Sequence record: MT478991.1
DNA length: 64,000 bases
From: Escherichia phage vB_EcoM_011D4
Strand: one strand, 5' to 3'
A model generated the notes under the pieces. It worked only from the letters and a program-made list of their open reading frames with translations. It did not search any database and had not been told where the DNA came from. Positions 3,401-29,053 of the stretch are shown here, one piece after another. Position numbers and translations under genes: made by a program. The first letter of the stretch is position 1. Every line of letters begins with the position of its first letter.

Positions 3401-4141
3401 GTCGTCGAGCATTACGCCTTTGCTATGGAACACAATGGCGACGCGACAGCATATAGAGACTTTATTGCAGGTCGTAACCTGTATGCGAAACAAGGCGGTT
3501 TATACATTGTTGATCAGTCTAATCCGGCAATGACTCGTTCCCCAGATGGTATGCTGAATATCGGTCACGGTGGAAGTGTTAACATCAAGGCAGGTTATCA
3601 AACGTTAACTACAGAGATCGCCGGACAGAAATATCAGATCGTACACGCAGGAAACGCTGACGAAGTTCTTAACCGTCAGTTTGTTAAGAATGCTGGCGAT
3701 ACAATGGTCGGTAAGCTGACTATGGATAATGCGCCTATTGTTTCTGTTAAGCATGAAGCTAGCGCGGCAACCGCTCCAGCAATCGGTAACATCGGTTTCT
3801 GGAATATGCGAGTTACTACCCAGAACATCAAAGAAACTTATCCAGAGAAGAAAAACGGTACTCTGATGCAATGGGGTACTGACGCGGACGGGCTTACCCA
3901 GCTTTGGTCCCCTGATGGTACTCATAAACATTATATCCGTTCCGGTACTGGTGGTCAATGGACTGCATGGGGTGAAATTTACACCAAACAGAATAAGCCT
4001 ACCGCTCAGGAAATCGGGGCAGTAGTTGCAGAAGGTGGTTTAATGAACTCTATGACGGTTCGTGATTGGATCAAAGTTGGTAATGTTAAAATCATCGCCA
4101 ATAATCTGACTCGTACCGTAGACTTTATCTGGGAAGACTAA
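401..4141 (+). CDS. 34: long tail fibre proximal subunit gp34 (1246 aa)
   Basis: Size and motifs match T4 gp34 (VTPKxL...ETRRGIARIATQ repeats, ARISTPLKIKT, conserved C-terminus); first gene of 34-35-36-37 module. Confidence 0.93.
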   Translation: MADFSQHFKATFGFDAGNEKVVNVALADKNVNTDAVNVEFFNYHNGITQYDTTRGYDQYGTTIYQNRPYYAKEDITKPAGDFDPTKWQALRTDPRWDYVAATSGDTPLQSGDYIAADGQFANLTFSMPTKPAEGDTITVKDIGGKCGVNELSFLSSGHEFYHNGNVYNRKWYCTTPYAMNYFIFVRNRWHVYQTGTEPRGVYAQPAIDAIQMQNGDQVFRRSSLGNITLVLPKFANNGDMIQTTDLDGLTATNHVTVKVHEHAEEQSIGTSGLKEIIGKRSGHGVFIFDKTENLWRLWDGDQSVRLKPIIDDTRLQPNSYVAVFGDRDVTLTLPTNVEPGDRIQVSMQYMHGNQNCRIITATEDTKILMQKNMVQFPKRSEYPFNGTDTWTGVSELSFNAANDYVPYLEFSYSEGDDGKKYWLVAHAHPIVERVDPTRKDRVGVIALATQDETNKNHEDNPSDEVAVTPKVLANKTANETRRGIARIATQAETHQDTGSSFLDDVIVTPKKLNNCVATEARRGVMEIATQHETNEGLDDTRAITPKKLEERRASEDLAGIAEIVQAGGSAAARRGEAGTGIYNINDHAKIVTPQNINEVKATETSRGVGYLATDAEVQGATESTPQDALLITTRTLTKRTATESRTGIAEIATQEETNLGQSDNHIITPKKLHTRRATETLHGLAEIATQPEFDAGLDDARISTPLKIKTFFENAQRLKVDPTQGLNLTGDLWQGIMIRGLDATEDTKGVAKVATTQLTDAGQDDTTIITPKKLQGKKATEGKEGIIRVGTQAETVAGTLANVAISPKNFKYVVQTEDTWKATEARRGFLKVATQENCFVGDNLQGSTQELGNYQHDGIAVTPKGLNYALANFLPKMATAQNSLKLGNVEAAKWARRDIDQTIESNYTFNKNVNVKGDLGCLKSGSFETLSVTKNSTDGPSNGHLVLGERGVDGHTGITLHGTTASEGMKNSWSIIVGGTGTAQVVDSDAIAFGKINDGGVVEHYAFAMEHNGDATAYRDFIAGRNLYAKQGGLYIVDQSNPAMTRSPDGMLNIGHGGSVNIKAGYQTLTTEIAGQKYQIVHAGNADEVLNRQFVKNAGDTMVGKLTMDNAPIVSVKHEASAATAPAIGNIGFWNMRVTTQNIKETYPEKKNGTLMQWGTDADGLTQLWSPDGTHKHYIRSGTGGQWTAWGEIYTKQNKPTAQEIGAVVAEGGLMNSMTVRDWIKVGNVKIIANNLTRTVDFIWED
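1736..2830 (+). repeat. in-frame tandem ~40-aa repeats inside gp34 ([I/V]TPKKL...RRATE..G[I/V]AEIATQ.ET..G.DD, about 8-9 copies)
   Basis: Repeated peptide motif read in the gp34 translation; approximate nucleotide span. Confidence 0.6.
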
Positions 4142-4146
4142 TTAAA

Positions 4147-4162
4147 GGGGGCGAAAGCCCCC
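4147..4162 (+). promoter_or_regulatory. GC stem-loop (GGGGGC-gaaa-GCCCCC) between gene 34 and 35, no T-run
   Basis: Perfect 6-bp inverted repeat immediately after the gp34 stop; not followed by a U-tract, so not a classical terminator. Confidence 0.4.
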
Positions 4163-4174
4163 TATGGGGTTATT

Positions 4175-5314
4175 ATGACACAAGATATAGAATTACGCAA
4201 CACTGGAATTAGGTTTGCGCATTTCGACGAAGACTCTGCGACATTTACCAGCATTTCAGAAAATAACTCTGTGATGTATAAGCTGGAAGTGCGCGGATCT
4301 AATGCGGATTCTACCAAACCAGCAAGAATTAGATTTAATGGAGTGGAGATCGTTGGCACTGGCTATGAAAATGGCCTAAATTTTAAAGTTCTTACTCCAA
4401 CTGGACAACTACACGAAGAAAAGGTATTCTATGGTCGCGGTGCTGTTTTGGCAATGCGTGATTATCTTTCTTTGCTGAAAGGTGATTATATCATTGCGAT
4501 GGCAACTCATGGAGAATTGTTTGCAGATCCGATAAGTGATGTTGTATTTTCTAAGCTGGGATCGGTATCATTCCCGAATCACATTTTGTTACAGCAAATG
4601 CCTCGTGTATCATATGCAGCAATTTATTCTACGAAAATGGGTAAAATTGTTTGTGAGGGTATGCAAGCGACCCACGGGGAAGGACAAGATTCATCTATAC
4701 AAATTGAGAAAGTCTATGATACTATAGATGATCTTGCTATAACAGGAACACCACAACGATTTTTAGATTATCCGGTTGAGTATGTTAGCGAAGATGCCGA
4801 ACATTTCGAGCTAATACAATGGCCTCACGATGAGATCAGCGCACCACTTGAAGATTTTAACATAAAGGCAGGTGACAAACTATCAATATCCTTTGAATTG
4901 TTCCGTGATAGTGCCGCAGCCGCAGCCAACGTAACAGCGCGTTTCTATCACAACTACTTCACCGATGGACAATATAAAACTGGTGTTCGATACAATGCCA
5001 GCAAAAAAGACCAATGGGAAAAGTTTGAAGCAGTCTATACAGTACCGGAAGGTGTCGATGGTGTAGTAACTGGTTGTATCAGATATCCAACCAACTCAAA
5101 TGAAGGTATTGTTAAAATTAGAAACATACTAATAACGCCGATCAGTGGAGTCGTTAAAACTACTGGTCCTACTTCATTTGGTGTTAATGGTGTTAGAACA
5201 ACTCATATTCAGGATAACGGTGATTTTACTAACCCTGTAATGAGTCTTCTTAAACTACCCAGAGATAATAAACACATCACATCCAACAACTTTAAAGAGT
5301 TCGATGTTGATTAA
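4175..5314 (+). CDS. 35: tail fibre hinge connector gp35 (379 aa)
   Basis: Position between 34 and 36; size close to T4 gp35 (372 aa). Confidence 0.75.
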   Translation: MTQDIELRNTGIRFAHFDEDSATFTSISENNSVMYKLEVRGSNADSTKPARIRFNGVEIVGTGYENGLNFKVLTPTGQLHEEKVFYGRGAVLAMRDYLSLLKGDYIIAMATHGELFADPISDVVFSKLGSVSFPNHILLQQMPRVSYAAIYSTKMGKIVCEGMQATHGEGQDSSIQIEKVYDTIDDLAITGTPQRFLDYPVEYVSEDAEHFELIQWPHDEISAPLEDFNIKAGDKLSISFELFRDSAAAAANVTARFYHNYFTDGQYKTGVRYNASKKDQWEKFEAVYTVPEGVDGVVTGCIRYPTNSNEGIVKIRNILITPISGVVKTTGPTSFGVNGVRTTHIQDNGDFTNPVMSLLKLPRDNKHITSNNFKEFDVD

Positions 5315-22658: not shown

Positions 22659-24482
22659 TTATGATTGCATCCAAATTTTGCGCTGATCTGCATCTTCACT
22701 ATAGAGCAAATCGAATAGCTCTTTATAGTTTTCCGGCAACGTGATGATTTCCATTACAGGATCGTTGATCACGCGATGATAATCTGATTCTGTAAGCGAT
22801 GCTAACCCTTTGATATATCGAATGCTATAACCTTTGATATTATCTCGGTCGTTCTCAAAATCTTCTAGGTCATAATACCATCGAACATCATTACCTTTCT
22901 TTTGTTCCGCAATGATAATAGGTGTTTTGATAAACCGGATTCGTCCATCTTCGAACAATTCAGGCCAACGAGCAAAGAAAGAAATCAGACTAGGTTTAAT
23001 AGACCCGATCCCGTCAGTATCAGCGTCTGTCATAATCGCAATATTTTTGTATTGCATAACTTCCAGCGCATCAACACCAAATTGCAAACCAGTGATCGCC
23101 ATGATGTTAAAAATTTCGGCGTTCTTAACGATCTTTGCCTCTGGTTGTTCCCACGTTGTAAGAGTTTTACCTCGCAACGGGAAACCGCCATGTAAATCTT
23201 GATCACGTACAGAGATCAGATAGTTGATCGCGGAATCACCTTCCGTCAAAAACAGGGTAGTTTCTGCGTCAGTTCCAATAAGGTTAGCTTTAACGTGTTT
23301 TGCTACCTTAGCCCGTTTTGCTGCCTTTGCTGCCTTAGTCGCTGCCGCTTTATCTGCTGCCTCTTTGCGTGCCAGGACTACAGCAATAATAGGCATGATA
23401 ATGTTTTCTTTCTTCGCAATGACTTTAGCCAGCTTTTTAAAATCAAGATCAATATGACGCTTGATATCACCAGTTGGATTAGTCAATCGTTCTTTTGTCT
23501 GTGAATCAAAACGGAGGTTTGGCAATTCACGAACAATAAGAATACAGGTCAATCCAGACTTAACCGCAGCTTTAGTAACATCAACCTTATATTCTTTCTT
23601 GATTCGTTTTACAATCTCTTCACAAAGATCATCTGTCACGTAGTCTACGTGTGTTCCCCCGTTTTTGGTAAACAGACCATTAGCAAATGATACTGATTTA
23701 AAACCTTCACCTTCAACCGCAGGAACTAGGGCAAGTGAAAAGTTTTTATCTTCAATGACAAACGGATCATCATTGTATAGTTTAGCATAATCCTTGAACT
23801 TACTAACAATACGTTTACCATTAAACTTAAACGTGATCTTAGGAAATATTACGCTCAATGATTGCAGACGATCATGAACAATATCTAAAACAGAGTTGTC
23901 CATCATATAACCTTCGAAGTGGTCGAAGTCTGGGCAAAATGTAACCTTTGTTCCCTTCAATTTTGATGGTTTCGATGACCATGTGATATTTTCAGCACCG
24001 TTTGTACATTGAACGGTCATTTCTGTTTCGCCGTCACAGGTCACACCAGTAAACCAATCGCTAAAGAAATTTGACAACGACGACCCCACACCGTTCATCC
24101 CTTGCGTTAGTCGATTTGTATCATCAAAGTTAGACCCTGCTTTTGTTCGTGTCCATGCGGCTACAGGTTGCGGAATCTGCGTGCCCTCTGGGGTAGTAAC
24201 CATATGTTGAGGAATACCGCGACCATTGTCTGTTACCGTAACAATATTGTTTTGGATATCGACGCTAATCACATTGGCAAATTCAAAGTTAGTGCGGATC
24301 GCCTCGTCTACAGAGTTGTCGATGATCTCATCAATGATTTTAACCAGTCCTGGAACATATGAAATTTTTGTCCATTTACCGAACAGGAAACGTTGATGTT
24401 CTTCGTAAGTTGTTGATCCTATATACATTCCTGCACGCTTAAGGACATGTTCACGATCAGATAAAATGCGAAACTCACTCAT
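22659..24482 (-). CDS. 39: DNA topoisomerase II large subunit gp39 (GyrB-like ATPase), fused single-chain form (607 aa)
   Basis: Strong identity to T4 gp39 (HVLKRAGMYIGS, GLVKIIDEIIDNSVDE, DNGRGIP, GMNGVGSS, KNGGTH, LTEGDSAI); continuous ORF, no split into 39 + 60. Confidence 0.93.
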   Translation of the reverse strand: MSEFRILSDREHVLKRAGMYIGSTTYEEHQRFLFGKWTKISYVPGLVKIIDEIIDNSVDEAIRTNFEFANVISVDIQNNIVTVTDNGRGIPQHMVTTPEGTQIPQPVAAWTRTKAGSNFDDTNRLTQGMNGVGSSLSNFFSDWFTGVTCDGETEMTVQCTNGAENITWSSKPSKLKGTKVTFCPDFDHFEGYMMDNSVLDIVHDRLQSLSVIFPKITFKFNGKRIVSKFKDYAKLYNDDPFVIEDKNFSLALVPAVEGEGFKSVSFANGLFTKNGGTHVDYVTDDLCEEIVKRIKKEYKVDVTKAAVKSGLTCILIVRELPNLRFDSQTKERLTNPTGDIKRHIDLDFKKLAKVIAKKENIIMPIIAVVLARKEAADKAAATKAAKAAKRAKVAKHVKANLIGTDAETTLFLTEGDSAINYLISVRDQDLHGGFPLRGKTLTTWEQPEAKIVKNAEIFNIMAITGLQFGVDALEVMQYKNIAIMTDADTDGIGSIKPSLISFFARWPELFEDGRIRFIKTPIIIAEQKKGNDVRWYYDLEDFENDRDNIKGYSIRYIKGLASLTESDYHRVINDPVMEIITLPENYKELFDLLYSEDADQRKIWMQS

Positions 24483-24544
24483 TATTAAACCTCTTCATAA
24501 CATAACCATAACTTACTGCAACCGCCACAAAGACGGCTGCAACA

Positions 24545-24572
24545 ATCATATTAAAAATTGAGTGATTGTCAA
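24545..24572 (-). promoter_or_regulatory. early promoter TTGACA-16-TATGAT upstream of gene 39
   Basis: -35 at 24572..24567, -10 at 24550..24545; about 60-nt leader to the gp39 ATG. Confidence 0.5.
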
Positions 24573-24581
24573 GTATATGAC

Positions 24582-24755
24582 TCATGATACGCGCACATTT
24601 TTATCATAGTACCCGCCATTAATCCCGCGCGGGGCAGTCAATCCCTGTTTGCATTCTTTACCACATTCAGGGCATTCTGCCTTTTCACGCTCGGAAATTT
24701 TGCGGATTTTCTGAAATTGACCGTGTTCTTCACAAGAATAATCGTATAATGGCAT
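24582..24755 (-). CDS. small zinc-ribbon protein (57 aa, FmdB-like CxxH...CxxC)
   Basis: Refined ATG at 24755 with GGGGA RBS; MPLYDYSCEEHGQF...CPECGKEC pattern. Confidence 0.5.
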   Translation of the reverse strand: MPLYDYSCEEHGQFQKIRKISEREKAECPECGKECKQGLTAPRGINGGYYDKNVRVS

Positions 24756-24756
24756 A

Positions 24757-25425
24757 TTATCCCCTTTGTTTCTTAACTGAATTTGGATCTGGATTTTCTG
24801 GTAGGTCTTCCAGACCCATAGCATAACGTTGTGCATAGATTAGCATAAGAATATCGCGAGCGCAATCATGAATTGCATCATGTGCGATAAAACCATCTAG
24901 CGTACCCATTGGTAACGGACACTCACACATCCCGCGATGCATCAATGTACGCTCAATGGCGGTGCGAACATCTCGGATATTCCAGAATCGCACAGGTTCA
25001 AGGCTGAACGTCTCTCGTGTATTGTGTGCACGGCGGATCATATCAACTAGCAACGGAATATCAAACGCATTACCGCGTGACCACATTACTGATTTAACCG
25101 GATCTACTCCTACGGCTTCACAGAATGCGTTAAAACGAGCTAAACCTTCTTTAGTTGATACTTCCGTACCATTTGTGATTAATTGCTTTCTCATGCCTTC
25201 TGAGGCGGTATTCTTCCACCATTCAACCACACCATGATCAAACACCCTTACACCTTTCTGGGAAGGAATATCAAATTTTACCAGAAAGGAATTGTCAACC
25301 AGTTCTTTAAATGTAGGTGGATTGTGCGGATCTTCTTTAAATCCGATTGCCGCCATATTGATCACCGCCCCATCAGGCGGATAACCTAAACTTTCAAAGT
25401 CAATCATTAAATCCACTGGAAGCAT
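24757..25425 (-). CDS. dexA: exonuclease A (DexA)
   Basis: Refined ATG at 25425 with GGAGG RBS; N-terminal MIDFESLG resembles T4 DexA (IIDFETMG); position between dda and 39. Confidence 0.7.
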   Translation of the reverse strand: MLPVDLMIDFESLGYPPDGAVINMAAIGFKEDPHNPPTFKELVDNSFLVKFDIPSQKGVRVFDHGVVEWWKNTASEGMRKQLITNGTEVSTKEGLARFNAFCEAVGVDPVKSVMWSRGNAFDIPLLVDMIRRAHNTRETFSLEPVRFWNIRDVRTAIERTLMHRGMCECPLPMGTLDGFIAHDAIHDCARDILMLIYAQRYAMGLEDLPENPDPNSVKKQRG

Positions 25426-25426
25426 T

Positions 25427-25669
25427 TTAAATATCCTCCGCGATGTGCCGGAATAACTCCAGATCATTTTTATCAAGAATGAAACCGCTACAATCAATAA
25501 TTCCTTTACCGTAATTATCGGTTAACAGTCGGTCCGTTGCCATGTATTCGCGTACTTTGTTGTTAAAATTCATTACATGTTGTGCATAGTCACAATGAAT
25601 CTTTTGACGGTTCCACGCGACAATTGATTGTAGATGTATTACATTAGCCATATCATTAATAACAACCAT
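25427..25669 (-). CDS. hypothetical protein (80 aa), third of a tandem small-gene array
   Basis: ORF track; ATG preceded by the repeated junction cactaagcGAGGtttttgatATG. Confidence 0.5.
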   Translation of the reverse strand: MVVINDMANVIHLQSIVAWNRQKIHCDYAQHVMNFNNKVREYMATDRLLTDNYGKGIIDCSGFILDKNDLELFRHIAEDI

Positions 25670-25726
25670 ATCAAAAACCTCGCTTAGTGGAATGTTCTGG
25701 CATTTTTATTGATACATTCAGCTTGG
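25664..25726 (-). repeat. direct repeat copy A (about 60 bp) spanning a gene 3' end, RBS and next start
   Basis: Near-identical to 25844-25906 (catatcaaaaacctcgcttagtg.aatg.tc...cattttattgatacat.cagctt). Confidence 0.7.
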
Positions 25727-25848
25727 TAGTCACGAGATTTTTTTGACGAATTAAGAGCTACAGCCAAAAAATCCTGTAACTGCTCGTTTGTCATTTTTGG
25801 CTTACGACGCGTATCTAAACTCTTCGTTCTTCTAACTTCATTAGCCAT
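25684..25848 (-). CDS. hypothetical small protein (54 aa), second of a tandem array
   Basis: Below track cutoff; ATG at 25848; C-terminus ...QAECINKNARTFH encoded within the repeated junction. Confidence 0.4.
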   Translation of the reverse strand: MANEVRRTKSLDTRRKPKMTNEQLQDFLAVALNSSKKSRDYQAECINKNARTFH

Positions 25849-25906
25849 ATCAAAAACCTCGCTTAGTGAAATGCTCGATCATTTTATTGATACATGCAGC
25901 TTCACT
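25844..25906 (-). repeat. direct repeat copy B (about 60 bp)
   Basis: See copy A. Confidence 0.7.
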
Positions 25907-26017
25907 ATCGCCGGACACGTTCCAGCCGTATAGACCCCATCTAAAGCACATGGTAACAGTTCCATTGTGACGGCTTACCGTCACATCATTAAATTCTGGG
26001 ATACTTCGCATAATCAT
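25850..26017 (-). CDS. hypothetical small protein (53-55 aa), first of a tandem array
   Basis: Below track cutoff; ATG at 26017 or 26011 with GAGGAA RBS; C-terminus ...EAACINKMIEHFTKRGF. Confidence 0.4.
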   Translation of the reverse strand: MIMRSIPEFNDVTVSRHNGTVTMCFRWGLYGWNVSGDSEAACINKMIEHFTKRGF

Positions 26018-26027
26018 AATAATTTCC

Positions 26028-27419
26028 TCAAATATAGTCTACTCGATACCGCGCACGGGTAACACCCACATATAATAACTGCATTGCCAATTCAAAGTCA
26101 ACATTGTCTGTACACATACAAGGAGTATACAGGAACACGCGGTCTACGCTGATCCCTTGTGACTTATGAATGGTGCAAGCTGGTAATGCTTTTACATTCA
26201 AGAACATACGTTTCATCGTCCAGAAGGAATCCCAATCTGGTTTAAATTTTGGATTCTCTTTCTTCATTTCGCGATATTGTCCGGCGACCGTATTCAGATA
26301 GATAGAGAAAATGTTCTTCTGACGTTGTTCTGTCAGAATGTTGATTTCTACTAAATCCGGTTTATCTGTAGTGATTCCGACTGCATCTAAACCGACTTTC
26401 TGATTTAGGATTTCTTTGTCTTCGTCATCATCGACGCTTTCCACTTTCAGAGTATAGCCTAAAACTGGTTGCGGATCTACCCCCGTGCAACGTAATGTAA
26501 ATTCACGCGGTATAACCTCTTTAACCCGGATCATCTCACCATTGTTAAAAATAACATTGGGAATTTTCTTCCCGCGTTCATCTCGCAGATATTCGATCAA
26601 CGGTTCCTGAGTAACCAGAATTTCATCTACAATCACTGGTTCATCGGTGTTATAAACGCGCTTGCGCACAATTTCATTGAGTTTTTCGACGCTCTTGTTA
26701 GTGTAAGCCAGAATACGGTTTTCTAGAAGGTCTTCCGGCGTTTTAACGGTTTCGAAATAATGCTTCATAAACTCCGGCAGAGTTGAGCTATGGAATACAC
26801 CCTCGTTACCGCACTGCTTTTCGAATACCCATTTACCGTTACGGACAGCGGTCGCCACATCAATGATCGGTGCATTAGATCGTTTAATTTCTGTCAACTC
26901 CACGTTTTGAAAATTTTCATCCGTGAAGAAAGGAGAAATTGACGTTGCACCGCTCGGATCAACTGGTCGTAACTGGTGCGGATCGCCAACTGCAATAACA
27001 ACAATTCGACCGTTGATACTCTTCATGAGAATATCAAATAGTTTCTTATCGACCATACTCGCTTCATCAACAATGATGATCTGAACATCATCTAGCTTAG
27101 GAGTATCTTTTTGCTCAAATACTTGAGTATCTTCATAGTTGGTCGGGTTTAGTCGCAGTAGTGCATGTAAAGTAAATGCTTGACGACCTACCGCTTTACT
27201 CAAAACTTTTTTAGCCTGGTGGGTAGGCGTTGCCAAAACCACACCAGTTACACCACGGCGGACCATTTCCTGAACAATGAATTTCATCATTGCGGTTTTA
27301 CCAGTACCCGCCGCACCACGGACAGTTGTATGCTTCTTTTGTTCAATGCGTTTCATTAGAACATCAAAAGCATGTTTTTGCCCGTCTGTTAACATATCGA
27401 AAGTTAATACTCTGCTCAT
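26028..27419 (-). CDS. dda: Dda DNA helicase (SF1)
   Basis: Strong identity to T4 Dda (LT.GQK.AF...MK, GAAGTGKT, APTH.AKK.LSK, FTNKSV.KLN.I.RK, ALPA.T.HK.QG.SVDR.F.YTPC, LLYVGVTR.RY.V). Confidence 0.93.
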   Translation of the reverse strand: MSRVLTFDMLTDGQKHAFDVLMKRIEQKKHTTVRGAAGTGKTAMMKFIVQEMVRRGVTGVVLATPTHQAKKVLSKAVGRQAFTLHALLRLNPTNYEDTQVFEQKDTPKLDDVQIIIVDEASMVDKKLFDILMKSINGRIVVIAVGDPHQLRPVDPSGATSISPFFTDENFQNVELTEIKRSNAPIIDVATAVRNGKWVFEKQCGNEGVFHSSTLPEFMKHYFETVKTPEDLLENRILAYTNKSVEKLNEIVRKRVYNTDEPVIVDEILVTQEPLIEYLRDERGKKIPNVIFNNGEMIRVKEVIPREFTLRCTGVDPQPVLGYTLKVESVDDDEDKEILNQKVGLDAVGITTDKPDLVEINILTEQRQKNIFSIYLNTVAGQYREMKKENPKFKPDWDSFWTMKRMFLNVKALPACTIHKSQGISVDRVFLYTPCMCTDNVDFELAMQLLYVGVTRARYRVDYI

Positions 27420-27733
27420 TATCCTAAAATCCTCACCTTGCGAACACAGATAGTATTGAGTTCTCGCCGTACCCGTTCTTTTTCATATTCAGGAATTTTA
27501 TATTCGATACCATCCCGAACAATTTCAGAAGACCGGATTATGCCAAATTTTCGTTTAGGTACAACCTTGTATTTCGGTTCACCCGCCAATAGACTCTCAC
27601 AATAATCTATCTGATCACACATTGACGCTAACGCAGCATCATGTGTTTCGCAAGTTAGGACGCGACCCTTCGCGTCCACTGAGTATTGAAAGAATCCGTC
27701 TTTATCACGATAACATACAGCAAATACATGCAT
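27419..27733 (-). CDS. hypothetical protein (104 aa)
   Basis: ORF track; start/stop overlaps with neighbours. Confidence 0.5.
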   Translation of the reverse strand: MHVFAVCYRDKDGFFQYSVDAKGRVLTCETHDAALASMCDQIDYCESLLAGEPKYKVVPKRKFGIIRSSEIVRDGIEYKIPEYEKERVRRELNTICVRKVRILG

Positions 27734-28488
27734 TATAAACCTACCTTCGCTTTCATCAATTCAATCCACGACGCATCAATCGGAAGCCCGTATTTCACGC
27801 GTTCTTTTTGTGCTGGCGTTAAGTTCTCATACTTAGAAAGAGATTCAATCAAAACGCTGGTATATTTTAGCACGATTTCGGTATTGTTTGCAATAGCCTT
27901 AAGTTTTTCCTCTTTCTTGTTGATTTCGCTAAGGGCTTGCTTGAGATCTGCAATTTTCTGATAACGTTCTTCCATACGGAAGAGAGTATTTTTAATCGCT
28001 CGCTCGGCTGCCTCTGCTTTCTCCGGTTCGTTGTGCTTTTTATGGCGCTCGATTGCTAATTTCTTTTCTTCGATTGCCATTTCCTGATTTTTGATGCGAT
28101 TCTCGTTAAGTTCGATCCACTCGATGTACTTCGCACGTAGGGCAATTTCATCATCAGAAAGTTTACCGTTAGTTCCTAGTTCCTGGATCTCTTTAAGAGA
28201 TTCGATAGTGTGATTGCCACGGAAAGAATTGTATTTCAGTTTAACCGGAATTACATTGCCATCAACATATCCCAGATTGCAATCAATGCGCTCTAAGGAG
28301 AGTCCGTCATCACCTTCACCGAAAGCCTCACCTGAATATGCGCAATGAGTCTGACGGTAAATGTTACGCACAGTGACTAAGCTCATAGAGAAGTCTTTGT
28401 TGCGACGTGAAGCGCCAGCCATGATAGAGTTCAGACGGAAAACAACCAGCGCCAATTCTTCGTTAGATTTAAAAGCAAACAGTTTCAT
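27733..28488 (-). CDS. hypothetical protein with degenerate HNH-like motif and coiled-coil C-terminus (251 aa), at the T4 srd position
   Basis: HCAYSGE..(19)..LSLERIDCNLGYVDGNVIPVKLKYNSFRGNH resembles a zinc-finger HNH core with the catalytic His replaced; C-terminal half is E/K-rich helical. Confidence 0.5.
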   Translation of the reverse strand: MKLFAFKSNEELALVVFRLNSIMAGASRRNKDFSMSLVTVRNIYRQTHCAYSGEAFGEGDDGLSLERIDCNLGYVDGNVIPVKLKYNSFRGNHTIESLKEIQELGTNGKLSDDEIALRAKYIEWIELNENRIKNQEMAIEEKKLAIERHKKHNEPEKAEAAERAIKNTLFRMEERYQKIADLKQALSEINKKEEKLKAIANNTEIVLKYTSVLIESLSKYENLTPAQKERVKYGLPIDASWIELMKAKVGL

Positions 28489-28517
28489 AATTGATTCTCC
28501 TTAGTTGGTATGTGTGT

Positions 28518-28546
28518 ATTATTGTCTATCTGGTTTGTGCTGTCAA
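28518..28546 (-). promoter_or_regulatory. early promoter TTGACA-17-AATAAT
   Basis: -35 at 28546..28541; followed by AAGGAGAATCAATT ATG of 27733..28488. Confidence 0.45.
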
Positions 28547-28549
28547 CAC

Positions 28550-29053
28550 TTAAATTAAAGAAAATTTGTAAATCTCTATCAGATCGCCATTACACGCGTA
28601 AACTTCCTCGATCTCGTCAAGGATCATGGTCGTCCCTGTCTTGTATATGCACTCGCGCTCATCTGCCAACATAGCATACAAAGACAGTCGAGTAGTCGGA
28701 TTGTCATACTCTTTAGACACCACTCGGTCAATAGCATGTTCGTAATAATTCATGCAAGGCTTGGTAGGTTTTATTGCAATAATCTTTCCTGTTGCATAAA
28801 CATCGGTTGCAAAGTCCTCTGCTGTTGATTGCAGTGGCGTAAAGCTCATAGGACGCTCTACAACGAAAGAATCACCCACAATTAAGGTATCCAGCTTACG
28901 GCCTTCTCTTTTGCTCACACCGCGATACAAGGCTTCATGATGCACTAACCGCTCAGTCTTTTCGATCAATCCATTAAGGGTCGACATATCGATATTTTCT
29001 TTGGAGTTCATAACTTCATCAATGATGTTAAGTTCTTCTGGTGTAAATTGCAT
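28550..29053 (-). CDS. possible Mod-like mono-ADP-ribosyltransferase (167 aa)
   Basis: R (LYRGVS), S/T (QST) and E-x-E (ADERE) motifs in ART-like order; at the T4 modA/modB position just downstream of gene 56. Confidence 0.35.
   Translation of the reverse strand: MQFTPEELNIIDEVMNSKENIDMSTLNGLIEKTERLVHHEALYRGVSKREGRKLDTLIVGDSFVVERPMSFTPLQSTAEDFATDVYATGKIIAIKPTKPCMNYYEHAIDRVVSKEYDNPTTRLSLYAMLADERECIYKTGTTMILDEIEEVYACNGDLIEIYKFSLI

Follow-up and report, generated by a model that had tools for sequence, protein, structure and literature searches.

Two kinds of behavior known from T4-type phages, the carriage of orphan antitoxins and genome rearrangement mediated by microhomology, bear on the small gene described here. 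Phage T4 encodes the antitoxin Dmd, active against RnlA and against LsoA, a toxin encoded by plasmid pOSAK1 (Otsuka and Yonesaki 2012, as cited in PMC5308261), and T4-like phages carry the orphan antitoxin AdfN, a NADAR homologue of DarG1 (PMC11825919). In addition, recombination of T4 at microhomologies of 6–10 bp has been shown experimentally at the tifA locus (Srikant et al. 2022, PMC9391042). We analyzed a 64,000-nt stretch of DNA of Escherichia phage vB_EcoM_011D4 (MT478991.1), hereafter the window, in which three small genes, denoted g1, g2 and g3, lie between dda and dexA. The window comes from a Krischvirus, that is, an RB49/Phi1/JSE-like T4-type coliphage, and its closest DNA matches are 98% identical. 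The middle gene, g2, is a homologue of Phi1 ORFan009.1, one of the seven phi1-specific open reading frames (ORFs), located outside the hyperplastic regions, for which no repeat, origin or mechanism is given by Arbiol et al. 2010 (PMC2839356); a literature search found no description of the capture reported below. Our overall reading, to which we assign a probability of roughly 0.7, is that g2 is a fragment of a plasmid gene captured by the phage along with duplication of a native gene junction, and we infer that its product would serve as an orphan antitoxin. On this reading, g2 belongs with both of the kinds named above.

As with Dmd, the g2 product is a small early protein of a T4-type coliphage with the proposed role of standing in for a labile antitoxin of the host or of a plasmid once the host is shut off, and the target in both cases is, or for g2 would be, an endoribonuclease-type type II toxin encoded on a small E. 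coli plasmid; according to the cited account, Dmd is not homologous to RnlB or LsoB and its function is proven, whereas g2 is a recognizable fragment of a gene in the antitoxin position, and its function is proposed. AdfN, like g2, is a toxin-less antitoxin homologue that was probably acquired from bacteria on more than one occasion and is patchily distributed, but it is an enzyme that reverses the toxin modification, and its acquisition was ancient and left no visible junctions (PMC11825919). In contrast, g2 contains a 43-residue fragment, with DNA up to 98% identical to that of the donor and with both joints readable. The rearrangements at tifA resemble those described here in that microhomology recombination makes direct repeats and copy number is unstable; however, those events are intragenomic and were seen in the laboratory around a counter-defense gene (PMC9391042), whereas g2 involves joints between phage and plasmid and a natural polymorphism, with no amplification above one copy.

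An earlier note on this DNA, made from the letters alone, had described three consecutive small minus-strand ORFs between dda and dexA joined by a near-identical junction, and this layout was confirmed, with the following features:

26028–27419, minus strand: dda.
25850–26017, minus strand: g1, the RB49 ORF010 homologue, 55 amino acids (aa), PHROG 16162, a conserved Krischvirus early gene.
25845–25902, minus strand: repeat copy R1, 58 nt, consisting of g1 codons 41–55, the stop codon (TGA, 25850–25852), the Shine-Dalgarno (SD) sequence (GAGG, 25857–25860) and the g2 start (ATGG, 25845–25848).
25684–25848, minus strand: g2, the Phi1 ORFan009.1 homologue, 54 aa here, PHROG 37371, consisting of residues 1–43, derived from a plasmid, and a frameshifted copy of the g1 tail.
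25725–25844, minus strand: unique body of g2, 120 nt, corresponding to codons 2–41 of the plasmid ORF.
25666–25724, minus strand: repeat copy R2, 59 nt, a duplicate of the g1 tail/stop/SD/start junction that now links g2 to g3, with the A5 run that truncates g2, GAGG at 25678–25681 and the g3 ATG at 25667–25669.
25427–25669, minus strand: g3, the RB49 ORF009 homologue, 80 aa, PHROG 15021, a conserved Krischvirus early gene.
24757–25425, minus strand: dexA.

Of the 59 columns in the alignment of R1 and R2, 52 are identical; there is a single 1-nt indel, and the perfect-identity tracts are 6, 14, 2, 2, 4 and 24 nt long. Thus, the near identity of the g1/g2 and g2/g3 junctions held up on alignment, and the common ribosome-binding site (RBS) and start context is real, with GAGG and ATG present in both copies. 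The C-terminal motif that the earlier note saw in both g1 and g2 stands in full in the Phi1-type relatives, which share the tail CINKM.EHFTKRGF; the window keeps only CINK, due to an extra A in R2 (A4 to A5) that shifts the g2 frame, so that g2 ends ...CINKNARTFH, with its TAA located 14 nt ahead of the g3 ATG. The 24-nt core of the repeat, CACTAAGCGAGGTTTTTGATATGG, is present in exactly two copies in the 64-kb window, with 0 expected from 100 shuffles; the complete repeat occurs nowhere else in the window, and in IMG/VR, the core is confined to the dda–dexA locus. The dda/g1 and g3/dexA junctions were examined as well, and the repeat is absent from both. Fold z-scores relative to shuffles were −1.67 for R1, +0.26 for R2 and +1.54 for the single junction of phage KFS-EC, with no common structure, and a conserved RNA structure or coupling hairpin was considered and rejected, the R1 hairpin being missing from R2 and from the KFS-EC junction.

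The genes on either side of g2 are widespread in Krischvirus: g1 was found in 32 of the 32 loci examined, including those of the outgroup with about 80% identity (KFS-EC and AV108), and g3 in all loci examined. The three genes belong to three separate PHROGs, with cross-matches confined to the 21-residue duplicated tail. Searches with tblastn using g1, g2 and g3 against the window returned self matches only, with no similarity between the bodies, and searches of Pfam, NCBIfam, PHROG and PADLOC with the three proteins yielded families of unknown function or nothing. The possibility that g2 arose by duplication of g1, or of the 5' region of g3, and then diverged was considered and rejected, given that beyond the tail there is only a 14-nt match. 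R1 is the same sequence as the single g1/g3 junction of the phages that carry two genes at this locus, and because this short form, including that in divergent lineages, has the same g1 tail, SD sequence and g3 ATG, the repeat unit is native to the phage, consisting of the native g1 end and the native g1/g3 junction, with g2 being an insertion.

The source of this insertion can be identified in plasmids. Two 3.1-kb E. coli plasmids, NZ_CP145632.1 (circular) and NZ_AP022094.1, match the g2 body along its entire length (124 of 124 nt). In these plasmids, the matching DNA makes up codons 1–42 of a 50-aa ORF, WP_024046379.1 (MANEVRRTKRLDTRRKPKMTNEQLLAFLAAGINASKNRDYQADITLEAHH). Blastn searches for further copies of the g2 body in phage records found none outside the dda–dexA locus. 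The homology between plasmid and phage starts where the plasmid ORF has its start context (...GGTTT(C)GATATGG) and stops at ...GACTACCAAGCTG, and these limits coincide exactly with the ends of the repeat, GATATGG being the last 7 nt of the junction unit and AAGCTG its first 6. The two joints are as follows:

25845–25851, minus strand: left capture joint, microhomology GATATGG; phage GAGGTTTTTGATATGG, plasmid AAGGTTTCGATATGG.
25718–25724, minus strand: right capture joint, microhomology AAGCTG(A); plasmid ...GACTACCAAGCTGATATCAC, phage g1 ...GATAGTGAAGCTG(C/A)ATGTATC.

At the left joint, 7 nt are identical, or 13 of 15–16 when the flank is included, and at the right joint, 6–7 nt, with the longer 7-nt form (AAGCTGA) found in RB49-type alleles; AAGCTG(A) is located in the phage g1 tail and at codons 41–43 of the plasmid ORF. 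Over the 127 nt from the ATG to AAGCTG, identity to the E. coli plasmid is 92.9% for the window, 91.3% for Phi1 and 89.0% for kvi, and reaches 94.5% and 98.4% for the metagenomic Krischvirus contigs L038 and L037, respectively, in both of which the insert occupies the same locus, is bounded by the same joints and shows an R2-type signature.

These features are accounted for by a scenario of capture and duplication that we consider highly probable. The ancestral gene order would have been dda-g1-g3-dexA, with one g1/g3 junction. In an RB49-like Krischvirus, a piece of a small enterobacterial plasmid comprising the first 42 codons of the 50-aa ORF would have been copied between two copies of that junction, with phage joined to plasmid at GATATGG and plasmid joined back to phage at AAGCTG(A). 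Because the phage has AAGCTG 59 nt upstream of GATATGG, joining at both sites must duplicate the intervening 59 nt, and the observed anatomy agrees exactly with this expectation. This could have occurred through a template switch in recombination-dependent replication, or through plasmid DNA bridging two copies of the phage genome. In place of its own last 7–8 codons, the captured ORF would have acquired the g1 tail together with the stop codon, RBS and coupled start that follow it, and is therefore proposed to be expressed inside the early dda–dexA transcription unit. The flanking repeats now recombine homologously, deleting g2, and undergo gene conversion. The simplest reading of the differences among the g2 alleles appears to be one capture followed by continued homologous exchange with plasmid alleles.

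A 14-nt sequence, TGATATGGCTAATG, occurs on the minus strand of the window both at 25642–25655 (g3 codons 5–10) and at 25839–25852 (R1/g2 start); 13 of these nucleotides equal the start context of the plasmid ORF, and the sequence is present in only some g3 alleles, namely, those of the window, Phi1, ECD7, PHB13, G2248 and phiS. The copy in g3 may be a trace of the capture, that is, an alternative or first joint that was trimmed later by an 18-nt deletion between GATATGG copies; the capture intermediate predicted in this case, in which the 13-nt GATATGGCTAATG would link the start of g3 to the body of g2, has no match in IMG/VR. The N-terminus of g3 around this site (codons 5–10, 25640–25657) is hypervariable, with at least four alleles (NDMAN, NNVAN, NDISK and NNIAN) that do not track the flank phylogeny.

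Natural variation at the locus provides both the state before insertion and an apparent product of deletion. We compared 58 Krischvirus records in the phage collection, all of which match the region. All three genes are present in 17 records, representing 14 distinct phages after removal of GenBank/RefSeq twins, whereas the other 41 show a two-piece match spanning about 720–725 nt compared to 901 nt, shorter by about 179 nt, which is one repeat period. As shown by alignment, this short form consists of g1, one junction copy and g3. The most divergent lineages, KFS-EC and AV108, all have the short form, with g1 ending ...CINSMIDHFTKRG(Y/S), followed by the SD sequence and the g3 ATG. In PHB13, the closest two-gene relative, the single junction equals the window R2 at every diagnostic position, including the A5 run, but is joined to the g1 body, so that PHB13 g1 encodes 51 aa with a frameshifted tail. 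By this anatomy, PHB13 is an R1×R2 deletion product, as expected of a window-like parent with the crossover in the left part of the repeat; if the crossover fell instead in the 24-nt perfect tract on the right, the resulting junction would be of the R1 type and indistinguishable from the ancestral state. In three Makalu phages, R2 bears the R1 variants of the same genome, a state that indicates gene conversion.

Copy number at the locus is therefore polymorphic among related isolates, as a comparison suggested in the earlier note was expected to reveal, and the repeat acts as the recombination substrate proposed there as far as deletion is concerned, given the 41 records that lack one period and the chimera in PHB13. 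The corresponding proposal that recombination would add gene cassettes did not stand: more than one g2 copy per genome was looked for in the phage records and in IMG/VR, and only 0 or 1 copy was found. On neighbor-joining trees built from each flank and from both, the presence and absence of g2 required 8–10 Fitch changes, compared to 9.3 with shuffled labels. Phylogenetic mapping of g2 gain and loss was set aside as uninformative, with the flanks being too recombined, and the absence of phylogenetic signal fits frequent loss and/or free recombinational spread.

On the donor plasmids, the ORF for WP_024046379.1 is followed, after a gap of 36 nt, by a gene with the annotation of a YafO-family toxin. 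The 172-aa product of this gene (WP_024046380.1) scores 35.2 bits against PF13957 (YafO_toxin), above the gathering cut-off of 25, and 16.9 against the NCBIfam YafO equivalog, far under the cut-off of 153. In 13 of 13 further contexts, all of these on small Rop/ColE1-type plasmids, as well as in L034–L036, a gap of 36–39 nt separates the 50-aa ORF (P0012) or one of its 78–82% variants from a downstream YafO_toxin gene, as assigned by precomputed annotation in the further contexts; the genes are co-oriented, and the pairing holds for three sequence variants. The E. coli allele is listed on 777 contigs, and variants (73–82% nucleotide and 78–82% amino acid identity) are found in Escherichia, Enterobacter and Serratia. 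As in E. coli YafN-YafO, the toxin passes the Pfam YafO_toxin threshold and a small ORF lies directly upstream, in the place of yafN; unlike YafN-YafO, the upstream ORF is only 50 aa long, with no detectable relation to YafN or Phd-YefM, and the 172-aa toxin falls short of the NCBIfam model. An AlphaFold model of the 50-aa protein has a low mean pLDDT (predicted local distance difference test) of 66, and contains a helix at residues 21–38 with disordered basic N-terminal and disordered C-terminal regions. Another ORF of the donor plasmids, 49 aa long and assigned to the AbrB/MazE/SpoVT family, is located about 900 nt downstream of the toxin gene (L034 1713–1862 and L035 997–1146), with a weak match to the C-terminus of MazE (E = 0.022).

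Fragments of the same plasmid family were detected in other coliphages. A 49-aa ORF (P0010), found near homologues of N4 gp1 and gp2 in metagenome contigs of N4-like phages (Schitoviridae; L052 3001–3150, L053 and L054, from JGI 3300007106 and 3300007143), shares 93% identity across 100 nt with another plasmid allele, of the P0015 type. Its limits differ from those of g2, it has an internal 36-nt deletion and a different C-terminus, and the N4-like capture thus appears independent of that in Krischvirus. In the early region of the Gamaleyavirus 'nithesis', an Escherichia phage, a 59-aa ORF (L055 1456–1635, CDS0085) scores 30.1 bits against a profile of the 36-aa core, compared to 11.0 bits for the best of 5000 shuffles and 9.7 bits for the best of 1149 background segments, and shares the conserved motif P.MTNEQL..F, indicating that it is a distant homologue of the N-terminal part of the plasmid ORF. 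All phage copies retain the basic arm and the predicted helix (approximately residues 1–32 to 1–36) and diverge beyond, and because the same part was convergently kept, this pattern argues for a selected function. The g2 family is narrow, with 8 clusters in 5.8 billion proteins and 5 matches among 1.84 billion representatives. A repetitive 535-aa protein, P0011, gives a weak match to the g2 profile (E = 1e-4) over six stretches, via its ...DEARRTAILQARLDNPRLTVDELADHL... repeat, and this match is probably a compositional or helix-turn-helix-like resemblance.

Within Krischvirus, we compared the ratio of nonsynonymous to synonymous polymorphism (pN/pS) across regions taken from the same genomes, with the caveat that the numbers are small. 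The ratio was 0.04 for dexA, 0.17 for g3, 0.24 for the g1 body and 0.18 for the g1 tail, 0.44 for the g2 body (codons 1–36), and 1.04 for the duplicated tail on intact copies of g2. These values show that the first 36 codons of g2 are under some constraint and the borrowed tail under none. The slips in homopolymer runs that break the frame are of four kinds: A4 to A5 in R2 of the window, leaving a g2 of 54 aa; A7 to A6 in the Makalu phages (48 aa); A7 to A8 in ECD7 (39 aa); and T6 to T5 in pEJ01 (29 aa). The first 36 codons are intact in 16 of the 17 copies. The A5 run of the window is not a private sequencing error because it is also present in PHB13 and in P0005, and across the genomes, the run length is always 4 in R1, and 3, 4 or 5 in R2. 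In P0005 (L030 725–901; L030/L031, Logan SRR25667334 and SRR25667326), two compensating slips, A7 to A6 and A4 to A5, recode 12 internal residues while restoring the frame, the canonical stop beside the g3 ATG and the 58-aa length that g2 has in Phi1. Among the genomes, each of the four possible combinations at these two indel sites occurs.

We propose that g2 is translated from the copied SD sequence and ATG inside the srd-dda-dexA early unit and that its product would be an orphan antitoxin that neutralizes a plasmid-encoded YafO-like toxin once infection halts host antitoxin synthesis. Such a protein would be useful only on plasmid-bearing hosts, and this restricted benefit, combined with easy deletion mediated by the repeat, would explain the patchy distribution and partial decay of g2. 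The g2 DNA is 89–98% identical to the plasmid ORF in the antitoxin position, and no toxin homology follows it in the phage. Taken by itself, the antitoxin function has, in our estimate, close to an even chance of being correct. More tentatively, at somewhat under even odds, the YafO-like module of small ColE1-type enterobacterial plasmids might be an unrecognized abortive-infection defense from which at least two, and probably three, unrelated coliphage lineages (Krischvirus, N4-like and Gamaleyavirus) independently took antitoxin residues 1–32 to 1–36 as a counter-defense, with the Krischvirus repeats serving as a lose-or-amplify switch.

Several points weigh against our main reading. The 50-aa ORF appears to be in the position of a type II antitoxin, an assignment made from gene order alone, and it has no match in Pfam, NCBIfam or PADLOC and lies outside the known antitoxin families (Phd/YefM, RHH, AbrB and others). 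To our knowledge, the YafO-like plasmid module is not a known phage defense system. The g2 gene looks poorly maintained, with a pN/pS of about 0.44 in the body and about 1.0 in the tail compared to 0.17–0.24 for g1 and g3, and 6 of the 17 copies, that of the window among them, have a broken frame, through four independent changes. With regard to the origin of g2, template switching or bridging is the most likely route as judged from the anatomy of the junctions, and the gap of about 7% between the window-type and L037-type bodies might reflect either later exchange with plasmids or more than one capture.

The main rival explanation takes g2 to be a functionless plasmid scar that arose by illegitimate recombination, is tolerated for its coupling to g3, and is now decaying and being deleted. 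Four independent slips among 17 copies, a tail evolving at a pN/pS of about 1.0 and a body at about 0.44, the lack of g2 in 41 of the 58 records and the extreme narrowness of the family all agree with such a scar, but it does not readily accommodate the independent acquisition of the N-terminal 32–36 residues by N4-like phages, from another plasmid allele, nor the distant homologue in Gamaleyavirus, the intact first 36 codons in nearly all Krischvirus copies, the double slip that restores the frame in P0005, or a body pN/pS below 1; furthermore, the 98.4% identity of L037 to the plasmid implies recent or repeated exchange. We therefore regard a neutral scar as unlikely. The reverse transfer, in which the plasmids would have taken the ORF from a Krischvirus, draws on the fact that high nucleotide identity by itself gives no direction. 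The direction is nonetheless from plasmid to phage because the plasmid family is deeper and consists throughout of complete 50-aa ORFs with their own conserved C-terminus (..EAHH), always paired with the toxin; because the phage copy is a truncated fusion, the limits of which match sequence that pre-exists in insert-free phages; and because a second phage family matches a different plasmid allele. Transfer in the opposite direction thus has a probability close to negligible.

Two further alternatives concern the repeat. The earlier note had read the locus as a tandem array of small genes joined by a direct repeat; taken further, this would be an array of related cassettes that arose by duplication and are joined by a linker repeat that existed beforehand. 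Such an array would fit the presence of the repeat at both junctions, the common tail of g1 and g2 in genomes of the Phi1 type and the variable copy number of the middle gene, but the bodies are unrelated, both in tblastn searches and by their assignment to three PHROGs, no genome has more than one g2 copy, the g2 body is plasmid DNA, and the outer two junctions lack the repeat. An array of this kind is very unlikely, and rather than a linker that preceded the genes, the repeat would be a by-product of a single insertion of foreign, plasmid DNA. The other possibility is a PeSL-type mobile regulatory cassette, that is, an early promoter with a stem-loop terminator that enables modular shuffling. 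These cassettes were described in the same phage group, RB49 and phi1, where repeats flanking ORFans drive gain and loss, and the repeat at the present locus likewise flanks an ORFan that differs between phi1 and RB49 (PMC2839356). Unlike PeSL, R1 and R2 are a duplicated gene end, mostly coding, with two copies only, both at the dda–dexA locus, and no dispersed ones. A promoter scan of the minus strand over 24400–29000 detected no sigma-70-like site within R1 or R2, a terminator-like hairpin was looked for in both copies and not found, and no promoter-like or terminator-like site between dda and dexA falls inside the repeat; folding of the repeat is no better than that of shuffles and is not conserved. 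A PeSL-type cassette is accordingly extremely unlikely, and capture of a plasmid fragment with duplication of the junction remains our preferred account of the repeat.

A second indel hotspot is located about 1 kb downstream of g1-g3 (window 24475–24585 / 22659–24482). In Skers, PHB13, G2248, MIZ6 and JEP8 (L003, L015, L016, L019 and L022, locus ~4044–4949), a 729-nt endonuclease-like ORF lies there between a 36-aa ORF and the topoisomerase gene, phiS (L017) has a different ORF of 540 nt, and the window has none.

It is rare for a strictly lytic phage to leave so legible a record of taking up a host gene: the donor, both joints, the duplicated target, the pre-insertion state and the deletion product are all present in public sequences. 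The capture would give an origin to an ORFan that has been listed as unexplained since 2010, and it suggests a route by which a gene fragment can become expressible at once, by borrowing the tail, stop codon, RBS and coupled start of its neighbor. It also leads to the hypothesis that the uncharacterized plasmid pair of 50-aa and 172-aa proteins is a defense against T4-like and N4-like phages, which the phage peptides would overcome. This possibility bears on host range in phage therapy, for which Krischvirus phages, Phi1 among them, are used.

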